NCBI GenBank assembly: GCA_016840095.1
Contig: JAEOSZ010000050.1
Span: 1-45,474 of the forward strand
From: Candidatus Heimdallarchaeota archaeon
GTDB lineage: Archaea; Asgardarchaeota; Heimdallarchaeia; Heimdallarchaeales; Heimdallarchaeaceae
Direction of reading: 5' to 3'
Length of the DNA stretch: 45,474 nucleotides
This document shows positions 15,364-45,474 of the stretch, one piece after another; position 1 is the first letter of the stretch, and every line of letters begins with the position of its first letter. The notes beneath the pieces are model-generated. The model was not told where the DNA came from, searched no databases, and saw only the letters and a program-made list of their open reading frames with translations. The position numbers were made by a program, and so were the translations under genes.

Positions 15364-16227
15364 CTAACCTGCCTTTATTGTGTTCATGAGTGAATTAAGA
15401 CCTTCGTAAGTTCTAATTTGAATACCTTTTCCACAAACTAATCTAATAGAATCTGATTCAATTTCTGTAAACGGCCCAACTCTTGTAATGACATCAACAT
15501 TTGCATCATGCCTTCGTTTTAAACCAGATAAACCTAACATCACATTTGGTCCTTTAAACTCAATAACATCTAAACCTGCAAAACCAGCTATTTCCTGTGG
15601 GGTTGATATTCCTAGTTTAGTTATGGTCTCTTGAGTGGCATACTTTCTTAGTAAGAGAGCATTGACTTTGATAACATCAGTTTTAGTAAAAGATGATTTT
15701 AGTAAGTCTACAATAAACTTGAATGTTGGATTTTTTTCCATAACAAAAAAGGAAGCTATTCCCAATTCAGGTAAAATTGAAAGGAAAACTATTGAATCAA
15801 GAGGTAGTTTCATAAGATCATTTTGATCATTAACTTCCTTAGATGCAAACATATACACATAATGCAAAGGAGTCGAGTTTAGCTTTATTATGAAACTAGT
15901 ACTGAAATTCAAACCACTATCCTCAATTAATTTCTTAGTTCTCTTATTGAGCTCATTTTTCAGTTTAGTTGAAGTATCGTACTTCTTTACTGGAGTAAAA
16001 GTATAAAGATTCTGAAAGTCACCAAAAAAGAGGTTTTTTAGAGCTTTAATCCAGAAATTTCTTATTTTTGTAGTTGAAATTTTCTTGGCTTTTATCTCTT
16101 GAAAAAGTAACTTCTGAAGTTCAGTTTTTGATTTCTTCTGAATAGTTTTGCTAGTGGTTGAGAGAACAGAAATTATTTCTTTTTCAGTAAGATACTTGAA
16201 GATAGTTTCCTGTGTCACATCTACCAC
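15364..16227 (-). CDS. Hypothetical basic protein; candidate CENP-L/CENP-N-like (TBP-like fold) protein
   Basis: Clean 287-aa ORF with a Lys-rich helical N-terminus and a conserved-looking C-terminus (AGLDVIEFKGPNVMLGLSGLKRRH...). The CDS is well supported; the family call is by-eye inference. Confidence 0.45.
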   Translation of the reverse strand: MVDVTQETIFKYLTEKEIISVLSTTSKTIQKKSKTELQKLLFQEIKAKKISTTKIRNFWIKALKNLFFGDFQNLYTFTPVKKYDTSTKLKNELNKRTKKLIEDSGLNFSTSFIIKLNSTPLHYVYMFASKEVNDQNDLMKLPLDSIVFLSILPELGIASFFVMEKNPTFKFIVDLLKSSFTKTDVIKVNALLLRKYATQETITKLGISTPQEIAGFAGLDVIEFKGPNVMLGLSGLKRRHDANVDVITRVGPFTEIESDSIRLVCGKGIQIRTYEGLNSLMNTIKAG

Positions 16228-16367: not shown

Positions 16368-16592
16368 TCAAAAAACTATATTTGCTTTAAGAAGAATTAA
16401 TTGTATTTCAAAAGCTGTCAATAAAGCACAAATAACTACTATGACAATAACCATTTTCCAATTCTTTCTTTGAGACATTTCAACATAAAAGATGAACCAT
16501 GTAATTGCAGCTACAGATAAAATAGCAAATAACACTAGTACAAAAGTTAGCCATCCACCGGTTAAGAGTCCGTTATACGCTTCGTAAGCCAT
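16368..16592 (-). CDS. OST5/TMEM258-like two-TM oligosaccharyltransferase subunit
   Basis: 74 aa, two TM helices, ITWFIFYVEMS loop and terminal LILLKANIVF. This parallels the recalled TMEM258 pattern (TAWFFVYEVTS...LLLWVGIYV) in length and spacing. Confidence 0.7.
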   Translation of the reverse strand: MAYEAYNGLLTGGWLTFVLVLFAILSVAAITWFIFYVEMSQRKNWKMVIVIVVICALLTAFEIQLILLKANIVF

Positions 16593-16688: not shown

Positions 16689-17075
16689 CTAACCTGGGAT
16701 GAAGAAATCTCCATCAATTTTTCCTTTAAGATTTTTCTTTTTAATATACATTGGTATAATCTTCTTGATATTTTCAATATCAAACCCTGTTTCCTCAGCT
16801 AATTCTGAAATATTGAATTTTTCACCAGAAGAAATTGCATACTCAATTTTGTACTTAGGGGTATCTTCTTCCTTAAATTCACCTTTGGTTTTGCCTTTGG
16901 CACCAGTTTTACTTTTTCCACATTCAGGGCAGGTCCATGAAGCCATTCTAGTAATTGTAACATTTCCATCCTTGTCAGGCATGGGGCTTACAAAATTCCA
17001 TTCCTTGTTCGTTGGAACATCTAGAGGCATCCATGTGTTTCCACATTTACACTTAATAGGTTTGGTCTTAGCCAT
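16689..17075 (-). CDS. Cren7-like zinc-binding domain fused to a C-terminal winged helix (PCI-like)
   Basis: ATG at 17075 is preceded by GGTGAG. N-terminal CKCG...P-x2-KEWNFVSPMPDKDGNVTITRMASWTCPECG. C-terminal FNISELAEETGFDIENIKKII...LKGKID. Confidence 0.6.
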   Translation of the reverse strand: MAKTKPIKCKCGNTWMPLDVPTNKEWNFVSPMPDKDGNVTITRMASWTCPECGKSKTGAKGKTKGEFKEEDTPKYKIEYAISSGEKFNISELAEETGFDIENIKKIIPMYIKKKNLKGKIDGDFFIPG

Positions 17076-21599: not shown

Positions 21600-22478
21600 A
21601 TGAGACTTTGTTCAATCGATTATTCTCTTAATGAAGAAATTCACCCTAAAGAGATAATAAGTTCCATTGATCCAGTAAAAGCCAATGTTAAGTTCAACAT
21701 TGTTAAAAAAAGAAGCCCTGGATTAGATAGGAATACTTTGGAGAAGTCTCATGTCTTATTCATCAGCCTCCCACGCAAGAAACTCACTCAAGAACAATAT
21801 ATAGAATTAATCTCTTATATTGATATAGGTGGATGTTTGATTCTTACTTTACCCTCACCTCCGTGGACAGACTTAGGCAGATTTTTTGAAGAATTTAGAA
21901 AAGAAATTGGTATATCTTTTCAATCAAATTTTGTTTATGGGATGCCAAATATACCTAACAATGTTCGATTAATAGGTTCCAAATTGACCATAACTAAAGC
22001 ACATGTTATCAACTCAAACATGAATGAAGATTTTATGAAAGAAACTGGAATCAAAAGATACATTCCTATTGCTTTAATGGATGACCAACCGGTAGTTTTA
22101 GCAGCTCTTAAGCGAAGAGGGAGATTTATAGTTTTTAGCACTCCAGAGATTTTTACTAAACAAAATTCAGATTTCTTAAGTAGATTGATTCTACTCTCAG
22201 CTGCAAAGAAGGAGTATTTATTGTCAAAAACAATTCAAAAGTTCCAGGTAGGTGATTCAAATTTCTCATTACTTCTACAACATGCTTGTTTGGATAGTTA
22301 TTTATTATCCCTTTATCATTATGAATTTGTCTTTCATCAAGAGACTATCAATCTTGCTGAAGAGAACGAATTACCTCAAAGAATCTATTCAATAATAACC
22401 AAACAGAAAGTATTAAGTGAAAGACCAAATATTGAACAAATTCTTGAAGCAATTGAACATTTCAGAAACGGAAGTTGA
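21600..22478 (+). CDS. GIFT/IFT52-like (class I glutamine amidotransferase-like fold, non-catalytic) protein
   Basis: LEKSHVLFISLPRKKLTQEQYIELISYIDIGGCLIL and PVVLAALKRRGRFIVFSTPEIF...NSDFL match the GIFT/DUF4350 pattern. No signal peptide. Confidence 0.6.
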   Translation: MRLCSIDYSLNEEIHPKEIISSIDPVKANVKFNIVKKRSPGLDRNTLEKSHVLFISLPRKKLTQEQYIELISYIDIGGCLILTLPSPPWTDLGRFFEEFRKEIGISFQSNFVYGMPNIPNNVRLIGSKLTITKAHVINSNMNEDFMKETGIKRYIPIALMDDQPVVLAALKRRGRFIVFSTPEIFTKQNSDFLSRLILLSAAKKEYLLSKTIQKFQVGDSNFSLLLQHACLDSYLLSLYHYEFVFHQETINLAEENELPQRIYSIITKQKVLSERPNIEQILEAIEHFRNGS

Positions 22479-23548
22479 AGCTTGTGTTAATTAAACGAAT
22501 CTTAATCATAACCGAACATGGAGTACCTATTTTTGATTATGAAGAATATGGTAGAGATGATGAAGTACTTGTTGGAGGACTATTAACAGCAATTCTAAAA
22601 TTCGTTGAAGAAACAGAACAAGAAAAGCTGTCAAGACTTCTTCTTGAAGAAAGTCAATTTCTTGTAATTTCTAAGGAGTCTCTCATTTTTATTTTCCAGA
22701 TTTCTGATGAAATGCCTGGTGATTATGCAGAATATGTGAGTAGTTGCATTTTTGAAAGGTTTATGCAAAAATATAAAGATCAAATTAAAGAGTTCACAGG
22801 TAATGTTAGTACATTTTACGATTTTCAAGATGGATGCAAAGAAATTCTTCTTGAGTGTGGTGCCAACTTAACTGACATTTTAATCAATGAAAAAGAGAGT
22901 GAAAACCTTCATGCATGGTGCTTATTTTCAATGGATTATGAGCCACTAATTGTTATGGCTAACGCACCTAAATACAATGTAGATAGTTTCACTATTTTTC
23001 AAGTTCTAGGTAAAAGTGTAAAAAAAGTCTCTTCAAATTTAGGAGAAAATTCTAAAGGTACATGCTTCCACATTACTCATAATGGAAATATAGTACAAAC
23101 CATTCTTCTCCCTCAATCTATTATAGTAACTGAATCACAAATAGATAGTTTAAAAGCAAAGGGCTTGAAGCAATTTAAAACTAAATCTGCCCAACAATTA
23201 ATCAGTATTTTTACTAAATTATACAAACCAGATTCAATTGATATTTATAACAAAAGCATGATTTCAACAACTGATCAAAGTGAGTTGAATGAGAATCAAA
23301 AAGTTATTTTAGACTTATTCAAGGCAGCTGAAAAAGGATTCCAATATTTATTTGATACTCCTACACATATCCAAATACTGAGCTTTGAACAAAAAAGCTA
23401 CATCTATGTTAAATTAGTGAATAGGTCAATCATGATGGAGTTCAATAGAAAAGTTTCTGTATCAAATATAATTGAGAAAACAAAGAAAGCTTTTGAAGAA
23501 ATAGTTGTTACTAAGGTCGATACCCCTGCAACAGTGCTAGAAAGATAG
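22475..23548 (+). CDS. Longin-domain protein with two additional longin/roadblock-like domains
   Basis: IKRILIITEHGVPIF...DDEVLVGGLLTAILKFVEE...F...Y...FTGNVSTF is a typical Asgard longin. Two more alpha/beta units of about 100 aa follow. 4-bp overlap with the upstream gene. Confidence 0.75.
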   Translation: MKLVLIKRILIITEHGVPIFDYEEYGRDDEVLVGGLLTAILKFVEETEQEKLSRLLLEESQFLVISKESLIFIFQISDEMPGDYAEYVSSCIFERFMQKYKDQIKEFTGNVSTFYDFQDGCKEILLECGANLTDILINEKESENLHAWCLFSMDYEPLIVMANAPKYNVDSFTIFQVLGKSVKKVSSNLGENSKGTCFHITHNGNIVQTILLPQSIIVTESQIDSLKAKGLKQFKTKSAQQLISIFTKLYKPDSIDIYNKSMISTTDQSELNENQKVILDLFKAAEKGFQYLFDTPTHIQILSFEQKSYIYVKLVNRSIMMEFNRKVSVSNIIEKTKKAFEEIVVTKVDTPATVLER

Positions 23549-36440: not shown

Positions 36441-39400
36441 TTAGAATCGTACTGTAGCAATTTTATATGCATCAAAAATAGGGGTCAATATTCCTTGTTC
36501 TATAAATTCAAAGATTATAGGAAGTCCTTTTTCAATCCTAATATCATCAAGTTCATCGAATATTCTGCTAATTGTTACATTTTCATTGTTGGTAATGAAA
36601 TCAATTAACCTCTTCTGTAAACCATTGAATTCTTCAATTTCAAGTGCTTTGTAAGGAGATACAGTAAATGGATAGAAAATCCAAAGGTGTATTTCTTTCA
36701 TAATTTTCTCTGTTATCCCTTGAAGATTGATTCTAAAGACTTCTGTTGATCCATCCCAGTCTTCTGTTATATTGCTGAACATTTTAGCAAACCAAACACT
36801 GATAACAGTAAGCCTATCCTCAATTTCTGTGTTCAGTTCAGTTTCAGAGAAAGTATAAATTGTAAAATTACCAGATTCTGATCCAGTTACAAAGAAATTC
36901 TTATACTGTAATCGTTTTACAGCACCTGCTCTATCTCCTCTCAATTCAACACCCATAGAAGATATAGCTGTAAGAAAACCTGTGATAAGTGAAGGATCTA
37001 GAGTTATTTCTGAACCTAAATCCATCTCATAAACAGGTAACCCTGTAGCTCTGTGAACGATTATCAATTTAGTAATCGATAGAACACTTTCATATAAACC
37101 ATATATTCTTGCAAAGAGAGTTTTTTCTGCTTTTTTACTACTGTCAATTCTTCTACGAAGAACAATCACAGTTGGAGCAATAATTGCAGCTAAGGAAAAA
37201 ATCCCAATAATAACAAAAATATAAATTGGAATACCTACATCAGGAGGGATAATTGATATTGTTTTTAATAGAAAATCAGTCTGTTCTTCATAACCAGGTT
37301 TGCTAATTGTTAGAAAAACATTTACAGTTGTTTCCTGAGGTTCATATATTCTCAATGTTACCGAATAGAGACCTTGATCTTCTGAAGGAGTTCCTATTAT
37401 TTCTGCTTTATCTGAATCTAAATCTAGTGTGATTTCAAAAGTTGCCCCTTCTATATTTTCCGGATTAATTGTGTCAACATAATAAAAGGTAATTGTTGTT
37501 TCATTACCATGGAAAACTTCATCGTCTGAAGAAACAAGGTCTATAGTAGTTGGTGTAGTTAGAATCTCTAAATTAACAGTAGATGTTGCATTTTCTTGTC
37601 CATAGTCAACAATGAAGTCTTGTTTTGCGACAGAAATTCTAATGGAATAGGTATCTGGTAACAAATTGAGACCATCAATATCGCTATACAATTCAAATTG
37701 AATCAGATTTGTTACTGCAAATTCTCTAATACCGTACTGTAGTGTTTCAATCAATAATACATCATTAATATAGAAAGCCATATCATCAACAAGAACTGCT
37801 GTGCTTGAATTTGAAGTATCCTCCACATAGAACTGAATAATTGATTCATCATCGTTGTAATAAGCTTGGAAGCTACCACCTGAAGTTGGAGAAATAGCAA
37901 AAGTATGATAAACATAGACATAGAATGAAATTGAATGCTCTTCTAAAGAAATTCCAGTAGCTGTAAGAGTTATTGAATAATTACCAACTACTGTATCAAT
38001 CGCGATATTTCCTTCATAGTAGGGGCCTATATAATTTAAAACTCCAGATGTTCCCCAAGAAGTATTAAATGCTACTGGTGCTGCAGTTATTGGAGTACCA
38101 TCTCCAACAAGGAAAGGGTCACTGATATTATTATATGTGATTCGTACGGTGACAGATTCTTCATTTATCCTATTGATTGAAGTTGTAGTGTTAGTATAAT
38201 CATTTATTCCATAGTTTTCTTCCCAATTAAAGGAAGCAGTTGTTGATTTTCCAACAGATATTGTTAAACTAAAGAATCCTATTTCAGTATCATTGCTCCA
38301 AAAGCATGTAGCAGTCCACTGTCCTTCTATATCTGTTCCATTAAAAGAAGGATCAAATACTGTACTTACTGTATATTGTCCTGCACTTTCTTGAGTACTA
38401 TCCAGAATAGTATAAGGAGTTAAATCATTGAATATAAGAGTAGGATAAAGGCTGTCATTTTTGACAGGAACAATGTTTCCATTTGGATCATATAGTGTGA
38501 AATTTAGATTTCCCGTCAATTCATCGTTCAACGAAGAATCTTTAATATAGATGTTTGCTGTCACTATAGATCCATTATAACCTATTGCATGGGAAGTATT
38601 AGTTGTCCAATAACCTAGATTGAATGAGTTAGAATTAAGTGTCACATCGTATAGATAATTTAAACTCGTGGTTGTAAAAGAAAAATCACCTGATTCATAT
38701 TTATCAACTAATAAAAGAGAATCTATATCAAACACATATCCTAATAGTGTCCTAGTTCCAGGAATAGACATAGATTCATTAACCTCTAAATTGAAAGTAA
38801 TATCGTTCCAATCATCTGCAGTATACAATTCTTGAAACCTTGAAGGATTTGTATAAGGCAGCAAATTCAAAGCTCCACATGTCCAATTAACTGTCCAGTA
38901 TACACTTTCTGTTAAATGAGATGAATTTGATACAATATATGTAGAGGAAGCTGTCACAATTCGACTGAATGTATAAGAATTATTCATAGAAATTTCTACA
39001 GTTGTATTTGAACTAAGTGAGTGATCTCCATCTCCTACAATTTCTTGAGTGAGTGAAGTTATAGGTACAGCATTATCTGTTAGAGCTATTAATGAAGGAT
39101 CTGTAATTTCAATAGCATTGCCTTCTGAATCTGATCGCAATAGCTCTACATTTAGTCCTCTAGTTTCATCTGTTACAAGAGTCCAGGATGCACCATCATG
39201 GTAATAAAATGGATAACCAGAAGTTCCACCTTGTTTACCTAACCAATCATATGCATCACCTGCATCATCTATAACTGTTAATTCAATAACAACAAAATAG
39301 GTTCCCATTTCTAAAATAGTTTCACCCGTTAATGTAGTATTTAGAAAATCATAATCACCATAATCTGTTAATATACTTGTTGGGATAGTGTTAGATGAAT

Positions 39401-40022
39401 TGTAAGGTCCATTTATTTCATAAGCTCGAACATCAGTTAAGTTTGGCTGATTTAATCCATCTGCTTTTACAACATAAAGCTCTATTTCATCATTACCCAA
39501 TGTTGGTCCATCCTCTACTAGATTCAGTTCAGCTCCGTAGAATACTGCATAATCCCAAACTACTTGGAATGCTTGAGCTAAACGAATTTTACCAGAATCA
39601 AGGATATAATGTTTATTCTGAGAAGTAACTGGAAGTTCATAAATGTCAGAAGTACTAGCTATAGTTAGATTATAAGTAAGAATATCAGCAGTGAAATTTG
39701 AAGGTGGTTGTATGTTAAAACTATCACTCTGACCATTGCTTTCATTTAAAGACAGACTAGTAGAATGAGATACATTAAGTTCATCCATCACTGAAAATGT
39801 GCTTCCTATTCCTGATAGTGAATCAACAGGATTATAGTTTAACTTAATAGCTTGGTGAATATCATGTGAATTTAGATAATTTATATTTTCAACAGTTTCA
39901 TTAAAATCATAGATTTGTTCTGTATTTTCAAACAACTTAGAATCAGCATCTAATCCTAAACTTGCGAAATTAATAATCATCATACAAAGTAACAAGTAGC
40001 ATATTGATCTTCTATTGAACAT
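36441..40022 (-). CDS. Large single-pass membrane protein: beta-rich ectodomain, TM, cytoplasmic longin + winged helix (paralogue 1)
   Basis: Signal peptide; about 900 aa Ser/Thr/Asn-rich ectodomain with more than 20 N-x-S/T sequons; TM IPIYIFVIIGIFSLAAIIAPTVIVL followed by RRR; ITKLIIVHRATGLPVY...DPSLITGFLTAISSMG longin; terminal wHTH. Confidence 0.85.
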   Translation of the reverse strand: MFNRRSICYLLLCMMIINFASLGLDADSKLFENTEQIYDFNETVENINYLNSHDIHQAIKLNYNPVDSLSGIGSTFSVMDELNVSHSTSLSLNESNGQSDSFNIQPPSNFTADILTYNLTIASTSDIYELPVTSQNKHYILDSGKIRLAQAFQVVWDYAVFYGAELNLVEDGPTLGNDEIELYVVKADGLNQPNLTDVRAYEINGPYNSSNTIPTSILTDYGDYDFLNTTLTGETILEMGTYFVVIELTVIDDAGDAYDWLGKQGGTSGYPFYYHDGASWTLVTDETRGLNVELLRSDSEGNAIEITDPSLIALTDNAVPITSLTQEIVGDGDHSLSSNTTVEISMNNSYTFSRIVTASSTYIVSNSSHLTESVYWTVNWTCGALNLLPYTNPSRFQELYTADDWNDITFNLEVNESMSIPGTRTLLGYVFDIDSLLLVDKYESGDFSFTTTSLNYLYDVTLNSNSFNLGYWTTNTSHAIGYNGSIVTANIYIKDSSLNDELTGNLNFTLYDPNGNIVPVKNDSLYPTLIFNDLTPYTILDSTQESAGQYTVSTVFDPSFNGTDIEGQWTATCFWSNDTEIGFFSLTISVGKSTTASFNWEENYGINDYTNTTTSINRINEESVTVRITYNNISDPFLVGDGTPITAAPVAFNTSWGTSGVLNYIGPYYEGNIAIDTVVGNYSITLTATGISLEEHSISFYVYVYHTFAISPTSGGSFQAYYNDDESIIQFYVEDTSNSSTAVLVDDMAFYINDVLLIETLQYGIREFAVTNLIQFELYSDIDGLNLLPDTYSIRISVAKQDFIVDYGQENATSTVNLEILTTPTTIDLVSSDDEVFHGNETTITFYYVDTINPENIEGATFEITLDLDSDKAEIIGTPSEDQGLYSVTLRIYEPQETTVNVFLTISKPGYEEQTDFLLKTISIIPPDVGIPIYIFVIIGIFSLAAIIAPTVIVLRRRIDSSKKAEKTLFARIYGLYESVLSITKLIIVHRATGLPVYEMDLGSEITLDPSLITGFLTAISSMGVELRGDRAGAVKRLQYKNFFVTGSESGNFTIYTFSETELNTEIEDRLTVISVWFAKMFSNITEDWDGSTEVFRINLQGITEKIMKEIHLWIFYPFTVSPYKALEIEEFNGLQKRLIDFITNNENVTISRIFDELDDIRIEKGLPIIFEFIEQGILTPIFDAYKIATVRF

Positions 40023-40128
40023 AATTTGAAACCCCTTTACTTATAGAATTATTCTTTATTTTACAAAACAGTTTTGGTTTATAAATTATTAGTTATTTTT
40101 TCATTATCTTTAAACACAATAAAATAAT

Positions 40129-43100
40129 CTAAAATCTGACAGTAGCTATCTTATAAGCGTCAAATTCAGGTTCTAAGATATTAGTTTCGATTAATTCAAA
40201 GATAATAGGTAAACCTTGCTCTATTTTTACATCATCAAAATCTTCAAAAAGACGACTGATTGTAATAGATTCACTTTCTAGAACATAGTTTACCATTCTT
40301 TTTCTAATTCCTGACATCTCTTCAATTTCTTGACTCTTGTAGGGGGAAACTCTAAATGGATAAAAAATCCACAGATGAATCTCTTTCATTATTTTTTCAG
40401 TAATTCCTTGTAGATTCATTCTAAAGGGTTCTGTTGAGCCATCCCAATCAGCATCTATCTGAGGGAACATCATAGCAAACCAGTCACTTATGACTGTAAG
40501 TTTTTTCTCAATTTCCTCATTTAATTCGGTTTCAGAAAAAGTATACAGTGTAAAAAATCCTGATTGTGAGGCAATTACCTGGAATTCTTTATATTGCACT
40601 CTTCTCACACCTCCTGACCTTTCTCCCCTCATTTCAGTTCCTACAGAAGATACAGCTGAAAGGAACCCTGATATCAATGATGGATCTGCTTGAATTTCTG
40701 AACCTAAATCCATTTCATAAATAGGTAAACTAGTTACATTTTGCACAACAATTAGTTTTGTAATTGATAGCACACCTTCATAGAATTGATAAGTCTTAGT
40801 GAATATATCCCGCTGATTTCTTTTTTCTCTATTCCTTCTTCTTCGAAGAAGTAAAATGGAAGGTACAATTAAAGCCCCAGCACCTAAAATGCCAATTATG
40901 ACAAACAAATAGAAAGGCAGCTTAGAAACAGGTTCTGTTGGTAATGTGATCTGAACTGAAGCTAGTCTAAAGTCAATAGGTTCATGGTTTGAAATTGAAA
41001 TAGAAACATAAACATTCAAAGATAAAATAGTAGGTTGCAGAACTTTTACTATTACTGTATATATTCCTGCTGTTTCTGAATCAAACCAAACTTCTACATC
41101 TTCAATGTCAACACTTAGTTCTATATCTGCTCCTAATAATCCAGTAATTCTTGTAGATTTATTTGCATCCATTAAACTAAATTTAATCTCGGCTTGACTG
41201 TTTGTTTCCATTTCTTCAATACCTTGTTCAACGACTATTGCAATTGGTATTAGTACTATTTCAAATTGAGGGAAAACAAATGTTGCACTATTCTGGTGGG
41301 ATTCATCAACAAAGTCAGTTTTCGTAGCTACAACTTCAAGAGTATGGCTTCCTATAGTCAGTTCTAAATCATCTGTATCTAATACTACTTCAATGACTCC
41401 TCCTAATAATACAATGGAATACTCTTCACTTGTAAGATTGGAGGAATCTAATATAATAGTAAGTTCATCAGGATATATCTGAACACTTGCATTAGATAAA
41501 TCTACTAATTCTAATCTGAAGTTTGCTGGATTAGTATAGGTAACTTCACCTATAGTTTGGATAGAATTAATTCTAAATACATGTAGAATTCTTAAGGAAA
41601 ATTGTGTTGTATGATTTTGCAGATAATTACCAGAAGCAAAAATCTGAATCGTTGATAATCCCTCTGGAGCGTTTGTAGCAATAGTTGTTTCATAAGAAGA
41701 AACATTATAATCGATTGACCCAGAATCTAACCAGCTTGTTGTGAATGTAACTGTAGCGGCTGTTATTGGTGTTCCATTTCCTACAAAATACGGATCACTG
41801 ATATTGAGATAATTTACTCGTACTCTTATATTTTCACCACTAATACGAGAAATTTCAGAACTAGAATTGTTTATCCAAATATCACTACCTACACTTTCCT
41901 CCCATTCTAATTCAAGAAATGTAGGTTTAACTACTGTAATAGTTTTAGCAAAAAATCCAACTGCTGTTCCATTAGACCATTCGTAACTAACTGTCCATAA
42001 TCCTTCTAAATCACTACCATAAACTGAAGGATCAAATGACGTCACTGTAGAGTAAACTCCTGGGCTTGATTGAGACGATATCAATTGAGAATAACTTGTT
42101 GTATCTACAAAAGAGATATTTGAATCTAGGTTTGTTTTCATAGGGACTATCTGTCCATTGGGAGAATAGATTGTGAAGTTTAGTTCTCCAGTTAAAATGT
42201 CTGTTATTATATCCTCCCTTACTGTAATGGATGAATCTATATCGGAACCATAGTGACCAATAGCATGACTTGTATTAGTTGTCCAGTATCCTAGATTGAA
42301 AATTTCAGCTGAAATACTCGAATCAAAGATATGATTCCGACTTGTTGAATAGAACACAAAATCACTTTCAAAATAATTATTCCCGTTCAGTAAAATATCT
42401 AAATCTAGAGTGTGAGTACTTGATTGAATAGAACTACTAATTGGTACTGAATCATTGATGAAAAATGAATGACTCAAATTATTCCACCCTTCTGGAATTG
42501 TTATTGTTTGCGTTCTAGTATGACCACTATATTGCATGATATCTACTAAAGGAGTAAACCAGTTAATACTCCAAGATACACTATAATCATAAAAAGATGA
42601 ATTGAGTACAGAATAGGTTGACTGACCAACCAATGTTCTACTAAACGAATAATCATTGTTCATTTGAATATTAACAGAAGTGTTTGAAGTAATGTCATGA
42701 ACACCTATTCCACTTATCATCTGATTAAACGAAGTAATATCTATTCCATTGTCTCTTAATTGTATTTCTGCAGGATCTGTAAATCTCATTACTGTCCCAT
42801 TTTCATATGCAGGTGTTAGTTCTGGAGCCAAGACATAGTCTTTGTTTACAATAGAAGACCAAGCTGTTCCATCATGTGTATAAGAATCACCATAAACTGA
42901 GCCTTGTTGCCCTCTCCAGTTAAACCCATCTCCATCATTTGCATCATAACTAGAAGCATTTGCAACAAGATAGTATTTACCAGTTGAAAGTGTGACGTCA
43001 CTAAAGGAATAATAAACAACGTTTCCTGTAGTACTTTCTGTAATAGGATTTGAGGAGTTGAAAGGACCGTCTATTGCACTACTCAAAACAGAAGACATAT

Positions 43101-43710
43101 CTGGTTTTCCATCAGAGATACTTGAATTCACAAGAAACAAATCTAGTTCATCACCACCTATGGCAGTTTTAATAATAAGATATATTTTTGCTCCTGAGAA
43201 TATCGCCGCAGGCCAAGTAACATCAAAGCTCTGTGCAATTCTGATGACAGATGATGAAGGAATTTCATCTTTATTGTGAATAGTCTGTTGATAATCAAAA
43301 TAGCTGGTTGCCGAAAGAGATGAGATATTGTATTGCGATGAATCAACAGTATAATCGGTTATCTCCGATATTGTGTATGAATCAGTATAGCTATTGTCAG
43401 AATTTAGTGACAAATTAATTCCATGTTTCACTTGAAGATCATCTGAAACAAAAAAGTCATCCCCAGTCCCATTTGAAGTAAGAACAGGAGTATAGGAATA
43501 CTTCAACATTTGATCAAATGGAGAACTTATTTGTTCATTCAGCATATTGTTTAATGATACTTTATAGCTGTCTACATTATTTTCATTGACAATTAAATCA
43601 GTAGTTGTTCTATTCAACACTCCACTAATCGTGATAGGTAAAGCAGAGAGAATAATAGTATAAACTATAAATAGAGAAAAAAACTTCCTATATTTGAAAC
43701 TACAAAGCAA
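40129..43710 (-). CDS. Large single-pass membrane protein with cytoplasmic longin + winged helix (paralogue 2)
   Basis: Colinear with paralogue 1 (FNLGYWTTNTSHAIG, LNFTIYSPNG, FDPSVYGSD, DPSLISGFLSAVSS). Same FDAYKIATVRF C-terminus. Confidence 0.85.
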   Translation of the reverse strand: MLCSFKYRKFFSLFIVYTIILSALPITISGVLNRTTTDLIVNENNVDSYKVSLNNMLNEQISSPFDQMLKYSYTPVLTSNGTGDDFFVSDDLQVKHGINLSLNSDNSYTDSYTISEITDYTVDSSQYNISSLSATSYFDYQQTIHNKDEIPSSSVIRIAQSFDVTWPAAIFSGAKIYLIIKTAIGGDELDLFLVNSSISDGKPDMSSVLSSAIDGPFNSSNPITESTTGNVVYYSFSDVTLSTGKYYLVANASSYDANDGDGFNWRGQQGSVYGDSYTHDGTAWSSIVNKDYVLAPELTPAYENGTVMRFTDPAEIQLRDNGIDITSFNQMISGIGVHDITSNTSVNIQMNNDYSFSRTLVGQSTYSVLNSSFYDYSVSWSINWFTPLVDIMQYSGHTRTQTITIPEGWNNLSHSFFINDSVPISSSIQSSTHTLDLDILLNGNNYFESDFVFYSTSRNHIFDSSISAEIFNLGYWTTNTSHAIGHYGSDIDSSITVREDIITDILTGELNFTIYSPNGQIVPMKTNLDSNISFVDTTSYSQLISSQSSPGVYSTVTSFDPSVYGSDLEGLWTVSYEWSNGTAVGFFAKTITVVKPTFLELEWEESVGSDIWINNSSSEISRISGENIRVRVNYLNISDPYFVGNGTPITAATVTFTTSWLDSGSIDYNVSSYETTIATNAPEGLSTIQIFASGNYLQNHTTQFSLRILHVFRINSIQTIGEVTYTNPANFRLELVDLSNASVQIYPDELTIILDSSNLTSEEYSIVLLGGVIEVVLDTDDLELTIGSHTLEVVATKTDFVDESHQNSATFVFPQFEIVLIPIAIVVEQGIEEMETNSQAEIKFSLMDANKSTRITGLLGADIELSVDIEDVEVWFDSETAGIYTVIVKVLQPTILSLNVYVSISISNHEPIDFRLASVQITLPTEPVSKLPFYLFVIIGILGAGALIVPSILLLRRRRNREKRNQRDIFTKTYQFYEGVLSITKLIVVQNVTSLPIYEMDLGSEIQADPSLISGFLSAVSSVGTEMRGERSGGVRRVQYKEFQVIASQSGFFTLYTFSETELNEEIEKKLTVISDWFAMMFPQIDADWDGSTEPFRMNLQGITEKIMKEIHLWIFYPFRVSPYKSQEIEEMSGIRKRMVNYVLESESITISRLFEDFDDVKIEQGLPIIFELIETNILEPEFDAYKIATVRF

Positions 43711-43812
43711 TTTAGCTCATCTCTCTTATTCTAATAGATAAATAATAACTTATGACTTAAATTCTTTTTCTATTTTACAATAGTTTGGAAGAATAAAAGG
43801 GAATTATGGGGA

Positions 43813-45474
43813 TTAGCCATTAAATGATGAAAATTGACTTCGATGTAAAAATCCTTTATTTACCAGACTGAAAACAGCTGTAAGTGTGTCTTCCATTTCA
43901 TAATCACTGTATTTCTTCAGCAAAACACTAATCGTTACTTCTTCTCTTTTCTTTGCAAATTCTGCTATTCTAATCTCCATTTTATCCAGTTTCTTAATCT
44001 CTTTTAACTTTTGTTTATTAAACTTTAGAGGGAAGTAAATCCAGAAGTACAAAGATTCAGCTACCTTATCTTCTATAAGCTTCTTTCTAGTATTGAACAT
44101 TTCTTTTTTGCCATCCCATATCTTATCTTTGATCTTAAAGCTGTATTCAAACCACATTATTAAATCATAAAGTCTGTTTTGGAATTCTTTTATCAGTTCA
44201 TCTGAAGAGAATAGGAAAACTGTATAAGTTTCTGAACTGGCTCCTGTAACTACGAAATTTCTATATTCAAGTCTTCTAATTTCACCTGTGTTACTTCCAC
44301 CCAAGGTTTTACCCATTGTATCGACAACACTCAAGAAACCTGAAACTAATGCAGAGTCAATTGCATGTGCTCCACCAATATCCAATTCAAATACAGGTAA
44401 ACTAGTTTCAGTGTGAATAAATAGAATCTTTCTCATTGCTAAAACACTATCTAGTAGTCCTACAACTGCAGATTTGCTTCTAATATCAACAATTGTTTCA
44501 GCAGATTTTCTTGTTCTTGACAGTGCAATAATTCCGATTAAAAGAGTTAAAAGTAATATTCCTCCTACAATTATTATTACTATCAAGTATGGGGGGAAGG
44601 CATCGGAAGGCGATACTTTTACAGTAAAATCAAATCCAATTGTATCATCTTGATAAGTCGCTCTAAAACCTGTTTTAGTAACTTCTACAGTCACTGTATG
44701 AGTACCTGAGGCTTGCATATTGATAGTTAAAACAACCCAATCTCCATCTATTGACTGTTCATAAAATCCTTCAGCTAATAGTTCACCATTAATATACACT
44801 GTAATGTCATCAGGTAAAATATTACCTTGGAGAGGATCTGTCATATTAATTAACTGGAATCTTAATACAGCTTCATCAGTATTGTTTATCTCTATTGATG
44901 CTTCGTCTGGAACAATCTGAAATTGATTAACTACTTCTAGATTTAGAACTGCATCCTGAAGTCTGCATTGAGAACTATTAGCTTCCAATGTAATTGAGTA
45001 CAAACCAGCATTGATGTCTGCTGGAATTGTTGTGTTGAAAACAACACCATTTTGACTGAAGTCACCAGAAAGTCCCCAGCTAGTATGGAATGAAACTGTA
45101 GAATTTGGAAGAAGAATCCCTTTAGCTGTTAGGAAAGCCTCACTGATGGAATAAAAATCTGAACGTAATCTTAATGAATCTCCATTTATCCTTAAGGCTG
45201 TAACAGCTAATGTAGTTGTCCAGGCATCACTGTTAGGAACAGTTTCCCAAGAAGGCTCAAAAATAACTGCAGGTTCCACACAAATTGTTTTTGTGAATAA
45301 TCCAACTTGAGATCCGTTAGACCAATAAACAAAAGCAGTCCAATCACCTGCTTCATCAGACCCGTAAACTGAAGGATCGAAGATGAGATCAGAGATAAAT
45401 ATACCAGAACCACCTGAAAGAATTCCACTTTTTGTATAATCAGTTAGGTCGGTATATGAGAGGTTAGTATCAAG
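43813..45474 (-). CDS. Third paralogue of the ectodomain-TM-longin-wHTH family (5'-truncated by window edge)
   Basis: The frame is open to base 45474 (LDTNLSYTD...FDPSVYGSDEAGDWTAFVYWSNGSQVGLF). TM, then MRKILFIHTETSLPVF...DSALVSGFLSVV longin and a wHTH. Confidence 0.85.
   Translation of the reverse strand, partial: LDTNLSYTDLTDYTKSGILSGGSGIFISDLIFDPSVYGSDEAGDWTAFVYWSNGSQVGLFTKTICVEPAVIFEPSWETVPNSDAWTTTLAVTALRINGDSLRLRSDFYSISEAFLTAKGILLPNSTVSFHTSWGLSGDFSQNGVVFNTTIPADINAGLYSITLEANSSQCRLQDAVLNLEVVNQFQIVPDEASIEINNTDEAVLRFQLINMTDPLQGNILPDDITVYINGELLAEGFYEQSIDGDWVVLTINMQASGTHTVTVEVTKTGFRATYQDDTIGFDFTVKVSPSDAFPPYLIVIIIVGGILLLTLLIGIIALSRTRKSAETIVDIRSKSAVVGLLDSVLAMRKILFIHTETSLPVFELDIGGAHAIDSALVSGFLSVVDTMGKTLGGSNTGEIRRLEYRNFVVTGASSETYTVFLFSSDELIKEFQNRLYDLIMWFEYSFKIKDKIWDGKKEMFNTRKKLIEDKVAESLYFWIYFPLKFNKQKLKEIKKLDKMEIRIAEFAKKREEVTISVLLKKYSDYEMEDTLTAVFSLVNKGFLHRSQFSSFNG

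Follow-up and report, generated by a model that had tools for sequence, protein, structure and literature searches.

The window, by which we mean the whole stretch of 45,474 nt analysed here (Candidatus Heimdallarchaeota archaeon, GCA_016840095.1, contig JAEOSZ010000050.1), carries on its reverse strand an ORF of 287 aa that we refer to as the CENP-L/N-like gene (Table 1). Every block of residues that the original prediction had listed for this ORF and that was searched for is present, and in the order given. Translation probably begins at the GTG of codon 4, because the protein in the database is 284 aa long and the alignment has Met at this position almost without exception. At E ≤ 0.001, a homology search with the protein returned 70 proteins, one of which is the copy in the window; the named homologues are from Heimdallarchaeota or Asgard, and none of the 70 has a Pfam domain on it. 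The ORF is a real gene. Its product is basic (pI 9.6, net charge +13), with a charge per residue in the top 4% of the genome's ORFs, and the pI lies above 8 in 82% of 74 family representatives. Basic residues are kept in the family alignment at positions 56, 90, 187, 194, 195, 204, 239, 270 and 272.

Table 1. Features of the CENP-L/N-like gene and its upstream neighbour (window coordinates)
Feature	Coordinates	Strand	Remarks
CENP-L/N-like gene	15364..16227	-	ORF of 287 aa; 284 aa with probable GTG start at 16218
N-terminal helical bundle (residues 8-69)	16021..16206	-	Model; superposes on the CENP-N 'pyrin' domain; likeness also to Rho_N/SAP-type helical domains
TBP-like curved beta-sheet domain (residues 71-187)	15667..16017	-	Model; equivalent of the CENP-L/N homology domain and the RdgC/YejK core
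Dimerisation domain (residues about 200-271)	15415..15630	-	Second alpha/beta domain of the model; inside the CENP-L alignment
Predicted homodimer interface (residues 209, 214-250)	15478..15603	-	Complex prediction, conservation and weak CENP-N profile match in orthologues
C-terminal closing helix (residues 274-285)	15373..15408	-	Model; final aligned residues land on CENP-L 342 and CENP-N 212
Zinc/winged-helix gene, upstream	16689..17075	-	Two Cys pairs and a C-terminal winged helix; neighbour kept in five Asgard families

Judging from the translations, the gene sits upstream of what appears to be a 2-oxoacid:ferredoxin oxidoreductase-like operon; on its other side are two small genes, and it lies downstream of both. 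Between it and the zinc/winged-helix gene, positions 16368-16592 (-) encode a 74-aa hydrophobic protein that is kept in the query's family (f1) and has no significant Pfam match. The zinc/winged-helix protein may resemble Cren7; the Pfam Cren7 model gave no match on it. Elsewhere in the window we observed a poly(A) polymerase/class II CCA-type nucleotidyltransferase head domain (PF01743, PF12627; 5591-7006, -), here in an archaeon, a weak IFT52 GIFT-domain match (21600-23548, +; E 5e-4) that overlaps a 357-aa gene with no Pfam family, and tandem ORFs, two of 1193 aa and a third of 488 aa, with no Pfam match (36441-45279, -).

The original prediction had compared the protein by eye with CENP-N and, toward its C-terminus, with CENP-L. 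As sequence, this likeness is not significant: neither the protein nor three alignments gave anything credible in Pfam, NCBIfam, PADLOC or PDB sequence searches, and neither sequence nor profile searches linked it significantly to CENP-L or CENP-N. The CENP-L Pfam model (PF13092) had no match on the gene, and its cut-off was not reached. The RdgC Pfam model (PF04381) likewise had no match in five Asgard genomes. For a CENP-N/Chl4 motif that had also been claimed, there is one weak trace. When the CENP-N profile (PF05238) was run at a relaxed threshold against 40 genomes, five matches were obtained, two of them inside orthologues that belong to a single genus (per-genome E 0.031 and 0.21), and hmmscan of an orthologue gave CENP-N at E 0.055 over model positions 366-395. 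The matched stretch corresponds to query residues 221-253, at the dimer motif described below, and this trace hints at agreement with the motif claimed earlier. A chance match is improbable for a gene of ~0.9 kb in a genome of 2-4 Mb; yet the two orthologue matches are not independent, the profile also matched in three control genomes, and the best orthologue (13.7 bits) is far below the cut-off of 25 bits, which is exceeded in 0 of the 40 genomes. The top match of this search (G128, E 0.005) falls in a gene beside primase subunits and outside the CENP-L/N-like family, and was taken as chance. The protein is not CENP-L or CENP-N as these are defined, because profile scores stay below the cut-offs and because each genome carries one copy where the definition has a pair of paralogues forming a heterodimer.

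The structural claim is borne out by prediction. The AlphaFold2 model (pLDDT 89, pTM 0.85) consists of a helical bundle, a curved sheet domain, an alpha/beta domain and a closing helix, and in a Foldseek search with it the first 11 matches were all CENP-L or CENP-N chains (best E 4.7e-6), followed by RdgC (6.2e-5) and Iml3. VIA-align gave the same picture, with CENP-L at Z 10.5-11.8 (rmsd 4.5-5.3, 203-211 residues aligned, model 54/57-287; for the best match, Z 11.8, rmsd 4.5 and 204 aligned), CENP-N (6EQT) at Z 10.1 (rmsd 4.1, 182 of 207 residues, model 8-287), Iml3 at Z 8.7-9.3 (one match with Z 9.1, rmsd 4.6, 173 aligned) and RdgC at Z 8.1-8.4 (rmsd 5.6 and 183 aligned at Z 8.4). The CENP-L order of homology domain, dimerisation domain and C-terminal helix is present, with model 56-287 lying on CENP-L 56-342. 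A Foldseek-free structure search agrees and placed YejK at Z 9.0 (rmsd 3.1, 128 residues), RdgC at 7.5 and TBP at 4.8; the YejK score is level with those of Iml3 and some CENP-N chains. Structural identity to CENP-L/N is 8-15% and RMSDs are 4-5 Å. Other matches were a Rho N-domain (Z 4.3 over model 8-50) and trafficking appendage domains (Z 6-7, in alignments under 100 residues), while Med18/Med20 were not among the top 50 structural matches and viral structures gave RdgC-like or poor matches with TM up to 0.36.

Thus the TBP-like, CENP-L/N-type fold that had been proposed is supported by the model and its top matches, and the alternative that the protein is closer to RdgC is not borne out: CENP-L is ahead of RdgC by about 3 Z units. 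[quoted passage not shown] The N-terminal domain was assessed within the whole-protein model; GAPS4b and Rho_N/SAP proteins have helical domains of a similar kind. With a TBP-like curved-sheet domain and a dimerisation domain in the model, as in the CENP-LN/RdgC/YejK superfamily, membership in the CENP-LN/RdgC fold superfamily is very probable. At the level of the model, the protein looks like a body of CENP-L type that carries a head of CENP-N type.

A homodimer, which had been suggested, is likewise predicted. Complex prediction with two copies scored 0.54 versus 0.00 for the best of three controls. Among proteins of solved structure, this mark was attained by 20 of the 30 that are pairs and by 1 of the 23 that are single chains; the score may in part reflect the predictor's memory of solved complexes of this kind. 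The complex runs share at least 82% of contacts, with pLDDT of at least 86. The single confident interface, outside which residues are uncertain, comprises residue 209 and residues 214-250, and in it strand 221-225 of one copy runs antiparallel to that of the other; the RdgC ring has two interfaces. The prediction therefore gives a two-fold dimer through an intermolecular sheet, as in the superfamily, and Chl4-Iml3 pair via an extended sheet of equivalent domains (PMC6407923). The interface coincides with a conserved Gly/Arg motif: G215, G218, G226, G232 and R239 are invariant or nearly so, with G251 just after, and the most conserved part of the family is this predicted interface, not the N-terminal domain.

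The family profile matched in 107 of 400 Asgard genomes, nearly always in one copy. In the seven families of the query's own class the gene is nearly universal (28/30, 1/1, 3/3, 11/12, 21/22, 1/2 and 11/12 genomes), and it is also present in most genomes of families f13, f14, f17 and f25-f28. The same profile found none in f20 (135 genomes), f12 or f19 and a single positive genome among 89 others; the gene was not found in the two largest Asgard groups searched. We take f20 to be Lokiarchaeia and f5 to be Hodarchaeales. Weak N-terminal matches in f20 (E about 1e-3 per genome) were considered as distant orthologues and rejected as Rho_N/SAP-domain proteins with a different C-terminal part. These f20 proteins (L051:4027-4953 (+) and relatives) are conserved and have 300-320 aa; besides the Rho_N/SAP domain they contain a CxC..CxH motif that looks SWIM-like by eye, and their C-terminal part is rich in beta structure. 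When 1.84 billion representatives were searched with a profile, 55 proteins were obtained, the named ones being from Helarchaeota, Jordarchaeales, Freyarchaeota, Promethearchaeota and Heimdallarchaeota plus one labelled Deferrimicrobium. The last (P0104, NCBI label Candidatus Deferrimicrobium) is identical to an Asgard orthologue (G123) over the columns of the tree and is probably a mislabelled or misbinned record. No credible match was found in 401 genomes of one bacterial phylum, where one chance match contained stops, and tblastn of plasmids gave no match.

The claim of a single gene copy holds for nearly all Asgard genomes that have the gene, and an unfiltered six-frame search of the host genome found no paralogue. 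A quick tree of the family for the most part separates the sampled GTDB families from one another, and joins the query's class to f32 with support of 84. The gene is single-copy, near-universal in its class and grouped by family in the tree, and this pattern fits vertical inheritance of a housekeeping gene rather than a mobile defence gene.

No universal neighbour of the gene was found across the loci examined. The zinc/winged-helix gene is upstream of it in f1-f4 and f24, mainly in the histone-poor families f1-f4, and its product is a possible partner. Three homologues of the CENP-L/N-like protein (P0077, P0080 and P0088) have a fused C-terminal PCI-like winged helix, and these fused helices score against the profile of the upstream gene (E 5e-5 to 0.009, small set), which may be generic winged-helix likeness. 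A Rab-like GTPase gene adjoins the orthologue, in either orientation, in f5, f6, f15, f17, f26, f27 and f32 (loci L035, L036, L042, L043, L046-L048, L050, L060, L068, L069, L076, L079, L081, L087 and L090). A PDCD5-like gene is nearby in f15, f17, f26 and f27, and in f26-f27 an E2F/DP winged-helix gene (L069:4902-5360 (+), also L046-L048 and L079-L081; 39.5 bits, above the cut-off) lies one or two genes from the orthologue, clustered with the PDCD5-like gene and the Rab-like GTPase gene.

A search with PF00808, by which very divergent histones could be missed, detected HMf-type histones in 3 of 30 genomes of f1, 1 of 3 of f3 and 2 of 12 of f4, families in which 28, 3 and 11 genomes have the CENP-L/N-like gene. 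None was found in the host genome (89% complete) nor in two single-contig relatives. All genomes of f5-f7, families which also carry the gene, contain histones, with up to 12 matches per genome in f5.

As a control for the structural ranking, a bacterial GAPS4b, from loci retrieved by means of a short seed out of a paper's supplement, was aligned and folded; the prokaryotic comparison by folding thus consists of one control protein. GAPS4b is a defence protein predicted to form a dimer ringing DNA (PMC13748975); in the GAPS4 paper, the searched passages mention neither RdgC nor CENP. The control (L093:3923-5032 (+), 369 aa, pLDDT 81) folded as a SAP-like domain and an RdgC-like body. It ranked RdgC at Z 9.7 (rmsd 5.2, 229 residues), CENP-L at 8.2 (5.2, 210) and CENP-N at 5.7 (3.9, 122), and its N-domain, whose position in the model is uncertain because of a weak linker at 68-71, was left out of the CENP-N alignment and matches SAP domains instead. 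By structure scores the Asgard family is closer to CENP-L/N than GAPS4b is, and since GAPS4b prefers RdgC, a CENP-first ranking is not automatic for such an architecture. A profile comparison of GAPS4b and the family was in register but not significant (E 0.22).

Searches of the Atlas bear on how specific the likeness is. By structure, a mostly bacterial cluster of 297-aa proteins matched model 8-284 at TM 0.58 and a cluster of 836-aa proteins reached 0.59, where CENP-L has 0.56 and CENP-N 0.49 on the same scale. By features, with recognition below the reliable range throughout, Bacillota and Methanobacteriota clusters of 294-310 aa scored 0.92-0.95, and a cluster with 21% GAPS4b_N scored 0.90-0.92. 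The claimed likeness of fold to CENP-L/N is supported; a kinship with CENP-L/N in particular, as against the wider prokaryotic superfamily, is less secure, as unannotated prokaryotic clusters are equal by shape and the sequence evidence is marginal. These clusters are the main threat to any claim of ancestry.

We consider the protein to be, with good probability, a housekeeping homodimeric clamp of double-stranded DNA from the CENP-LN/RdgC/YejK superfamily, with CENP-L and CENP-N as its nearest solved structures. DNA binding is suggested by analogy, because CENP-LN, RdgC and YejK clamp DNA with such a fold and GAPS4b is predicted to do so; that the protein acts as a homodimeric DNA clamp we hold to be probable. 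Two copies would pair through strand 221-225, antiparallel to its mate, so as to form one sheet, and the TBP-like domains of the dimer would then arch, with two-fold symmetry, around a single DNA duplex. The helical N-terminal domains would be located at the tips of the arch, in contact with DNA or with another protein. Such a clamp would probably serve to organise the chromosome or to anchor other factors on DNA; neither a kinetochore-like role nor one in segregation is supported.

Three other functions could be assigned to such a protein. It could read archaeal histone chromatin, as the original prediction had allowed, with the N-terminal bundle contacting histones in the way that the CENP-N pyrin domain reads the L1 loop of CENP-A (PMC9235857). 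The superposition of the two domains and the presence of both gene and histones in f5-f7 would be in line with this idea, but histones are mostly undetected where the gene is near-universal, the host genome and the two single-contig relatives included, and conservation is concentrated in the dimer motif rather than the N-terminal domain. Histone binding is weakened by these observations, since most family genomes have the gene with no detectable histone, and histone reading is unlikely as the core function. It could also be a protein scaffold that does not clamp DNA at all and whose partner is a small GTPase or the upstream zinc/winged-helix protein. A Rab-like GTPase gene is adjacent in seven Asgard families, TBP-like folds occur in the trafficking appendage domains, and the pseudo-GTPase CENP-M binds near the dimerisation domains of CENP-LN (PMC9235857). 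Asgard genomes, however, have many GTPases, the CENP-L/N-like gene has none beside it in f7, f13, f14, f28 or the query's own order, the orientation varies, the appendage matches are short, and the basic charge and all full-length structural matches point to DNA, which makes a scaffold very unlikely. The least probable of these functions, which we regard as highly improbable, is that of a DNA-damage sensor in a GAPS4-like defence system: GAPS4b shares the architecture and the predicted dimer ring on DNA (PMC13748975), but about 75 loci show no conserved nuclease-like partner, and no PD-(D/E)xK nuclease gene is adjacent as in GAPS4. The distribution is not patchy; the gene is a near-universal single copy among housekeeping genes. 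PADLOC gave no convincing match, and four Asgard genomes searched with the GAPS4b profile contained no match.

A separate question, compatible with the DNA clamp, is that of ancestry. We lean, by a little, toward the reading in which CENP-L and CENP-N together have their archaeal sister in this Asgard family, a living, unduplicated homodimer. To the same slight degree we favour that it combines a CENP-N N-terminal domain with a CENP-L-type body and clamps DNA with no need for histones. It is also possible, though we think it the less likely course, that a generic prokaryotic member of the RdgC/YejK/GAPS4b superfamily became an Asgard core gene while CENP-L/N arose from another member, in which case the closeness to CENP-L/N would reflect a compact ancestral architecture common to many prokaryotic proteins. 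The Atlas clusters, at or above CENP-L by structure and scoring 0.90-0.95 by features (below the range of reliable recognition), speak for such an origin, and so does GAPS4b with its helical N-domain on an RdgC-like body, the N-domains being in register though not significantly. Against it, the folded GAPS4b prefers RdgC while the Asgard protein prefers CENP-L/N and has its N-terminal domain in the CENP-N position, the weak CENP-N profile match lands on the dimer motif, the gene is present vertically and as a single copy in the class closest to eukaryotes, and 401 genomes of one bacterial phylum gave no credible match.

If true, the sister reading would show a pre-eukaryotic core of the inner kinetochore. 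A homodimeric DNA-binding singleton has been inferred as the ancestor of CENP-LN (PMC9235857), and the standard account of kinetochore origins names only distant TBP-like relatives of CENP-L/N in prokaryotes and credits Asgard genomes with no eukaryote-like segregation system (PMC6601020). A single-copy Asgard gene with CENP-N/CENP-L architecture is a concrete and expressible candidate, with which the inferred ancestor becomes testable in vitro. Because the gene persists in lineages with no detectable histones, its distribution suggests that nucleosome reading was a later addition to an earlier DNA clamp. It also offers a way into the question of how Asgard chromosomes are organised and segregated, on which there is next to no knowledge (PMC12188315). 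We found no paper describing an archaeal relative of CENP-L/N, in agreement with the original prediction and within an incomplete coverage of the literature; within the same coverage, a structure-based Asgard survey contains no mention of one.

Among known systems, GAPS4b (PF26110) has a helical N-domain followed by an RdgC-like body and is predicted to form a dimeric ring around DNA. It differs from the Asgard protein in being 369 aa long, in lying beside a nuclease gene and behind an integrase gene, and in having a SAP-like N-domain that does not co-superpose with CENP-N in the model; the two profiles do not match. YejK/NdpA (9BE2) has the TBP-like DNA-clamp domain in common with the Asgard protein, over only 128 residues; its likeness to CENP-N and RdgC is published, and its C-domain had no structural match there (PMC11229321). 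RdgC (PF04381; 2OWL, 2OWY) is a homodimeric DNA-binding ring with the same two-domain body (Z 7.5-8.4, rmsd 5.6). RdgC has no N-terminal helical bundle and its ring is fully closed, whereas the Asgard model has one confident interface.

The relation to CENP-N/Chl4/Mis15 (PF05238; 6EQT, 6C0W, 8OVW_N) is that the bundle and the TBP-like domain superpose together, at 8% identity. Unlike CENP-N, the Asgard protein has no long linker, the helix that matches up to CENP-N 212 comes after the dimerisation domain, and most relatives in the family occur with no detectable histone, let alone CENP-A. Compared with CENP-L/Iml3/Fta1 (PF13092; 7R5V_L, 7PKN_L, 4IT3), the Asgard protein has an extra N-terminal helical bundle and no sequence-profile match, and it is the product of a single gene and a predicted homodimer, whereas CENP-L is part of a heterodimer inside the CCAN. 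From residue 56 onward, the domain order is the same as in CENP-L (Z 10.5-11.8, 15% identity), and CENP-L/Iml3 pair through an extended sheet, as is predicted for the Asgard protein.
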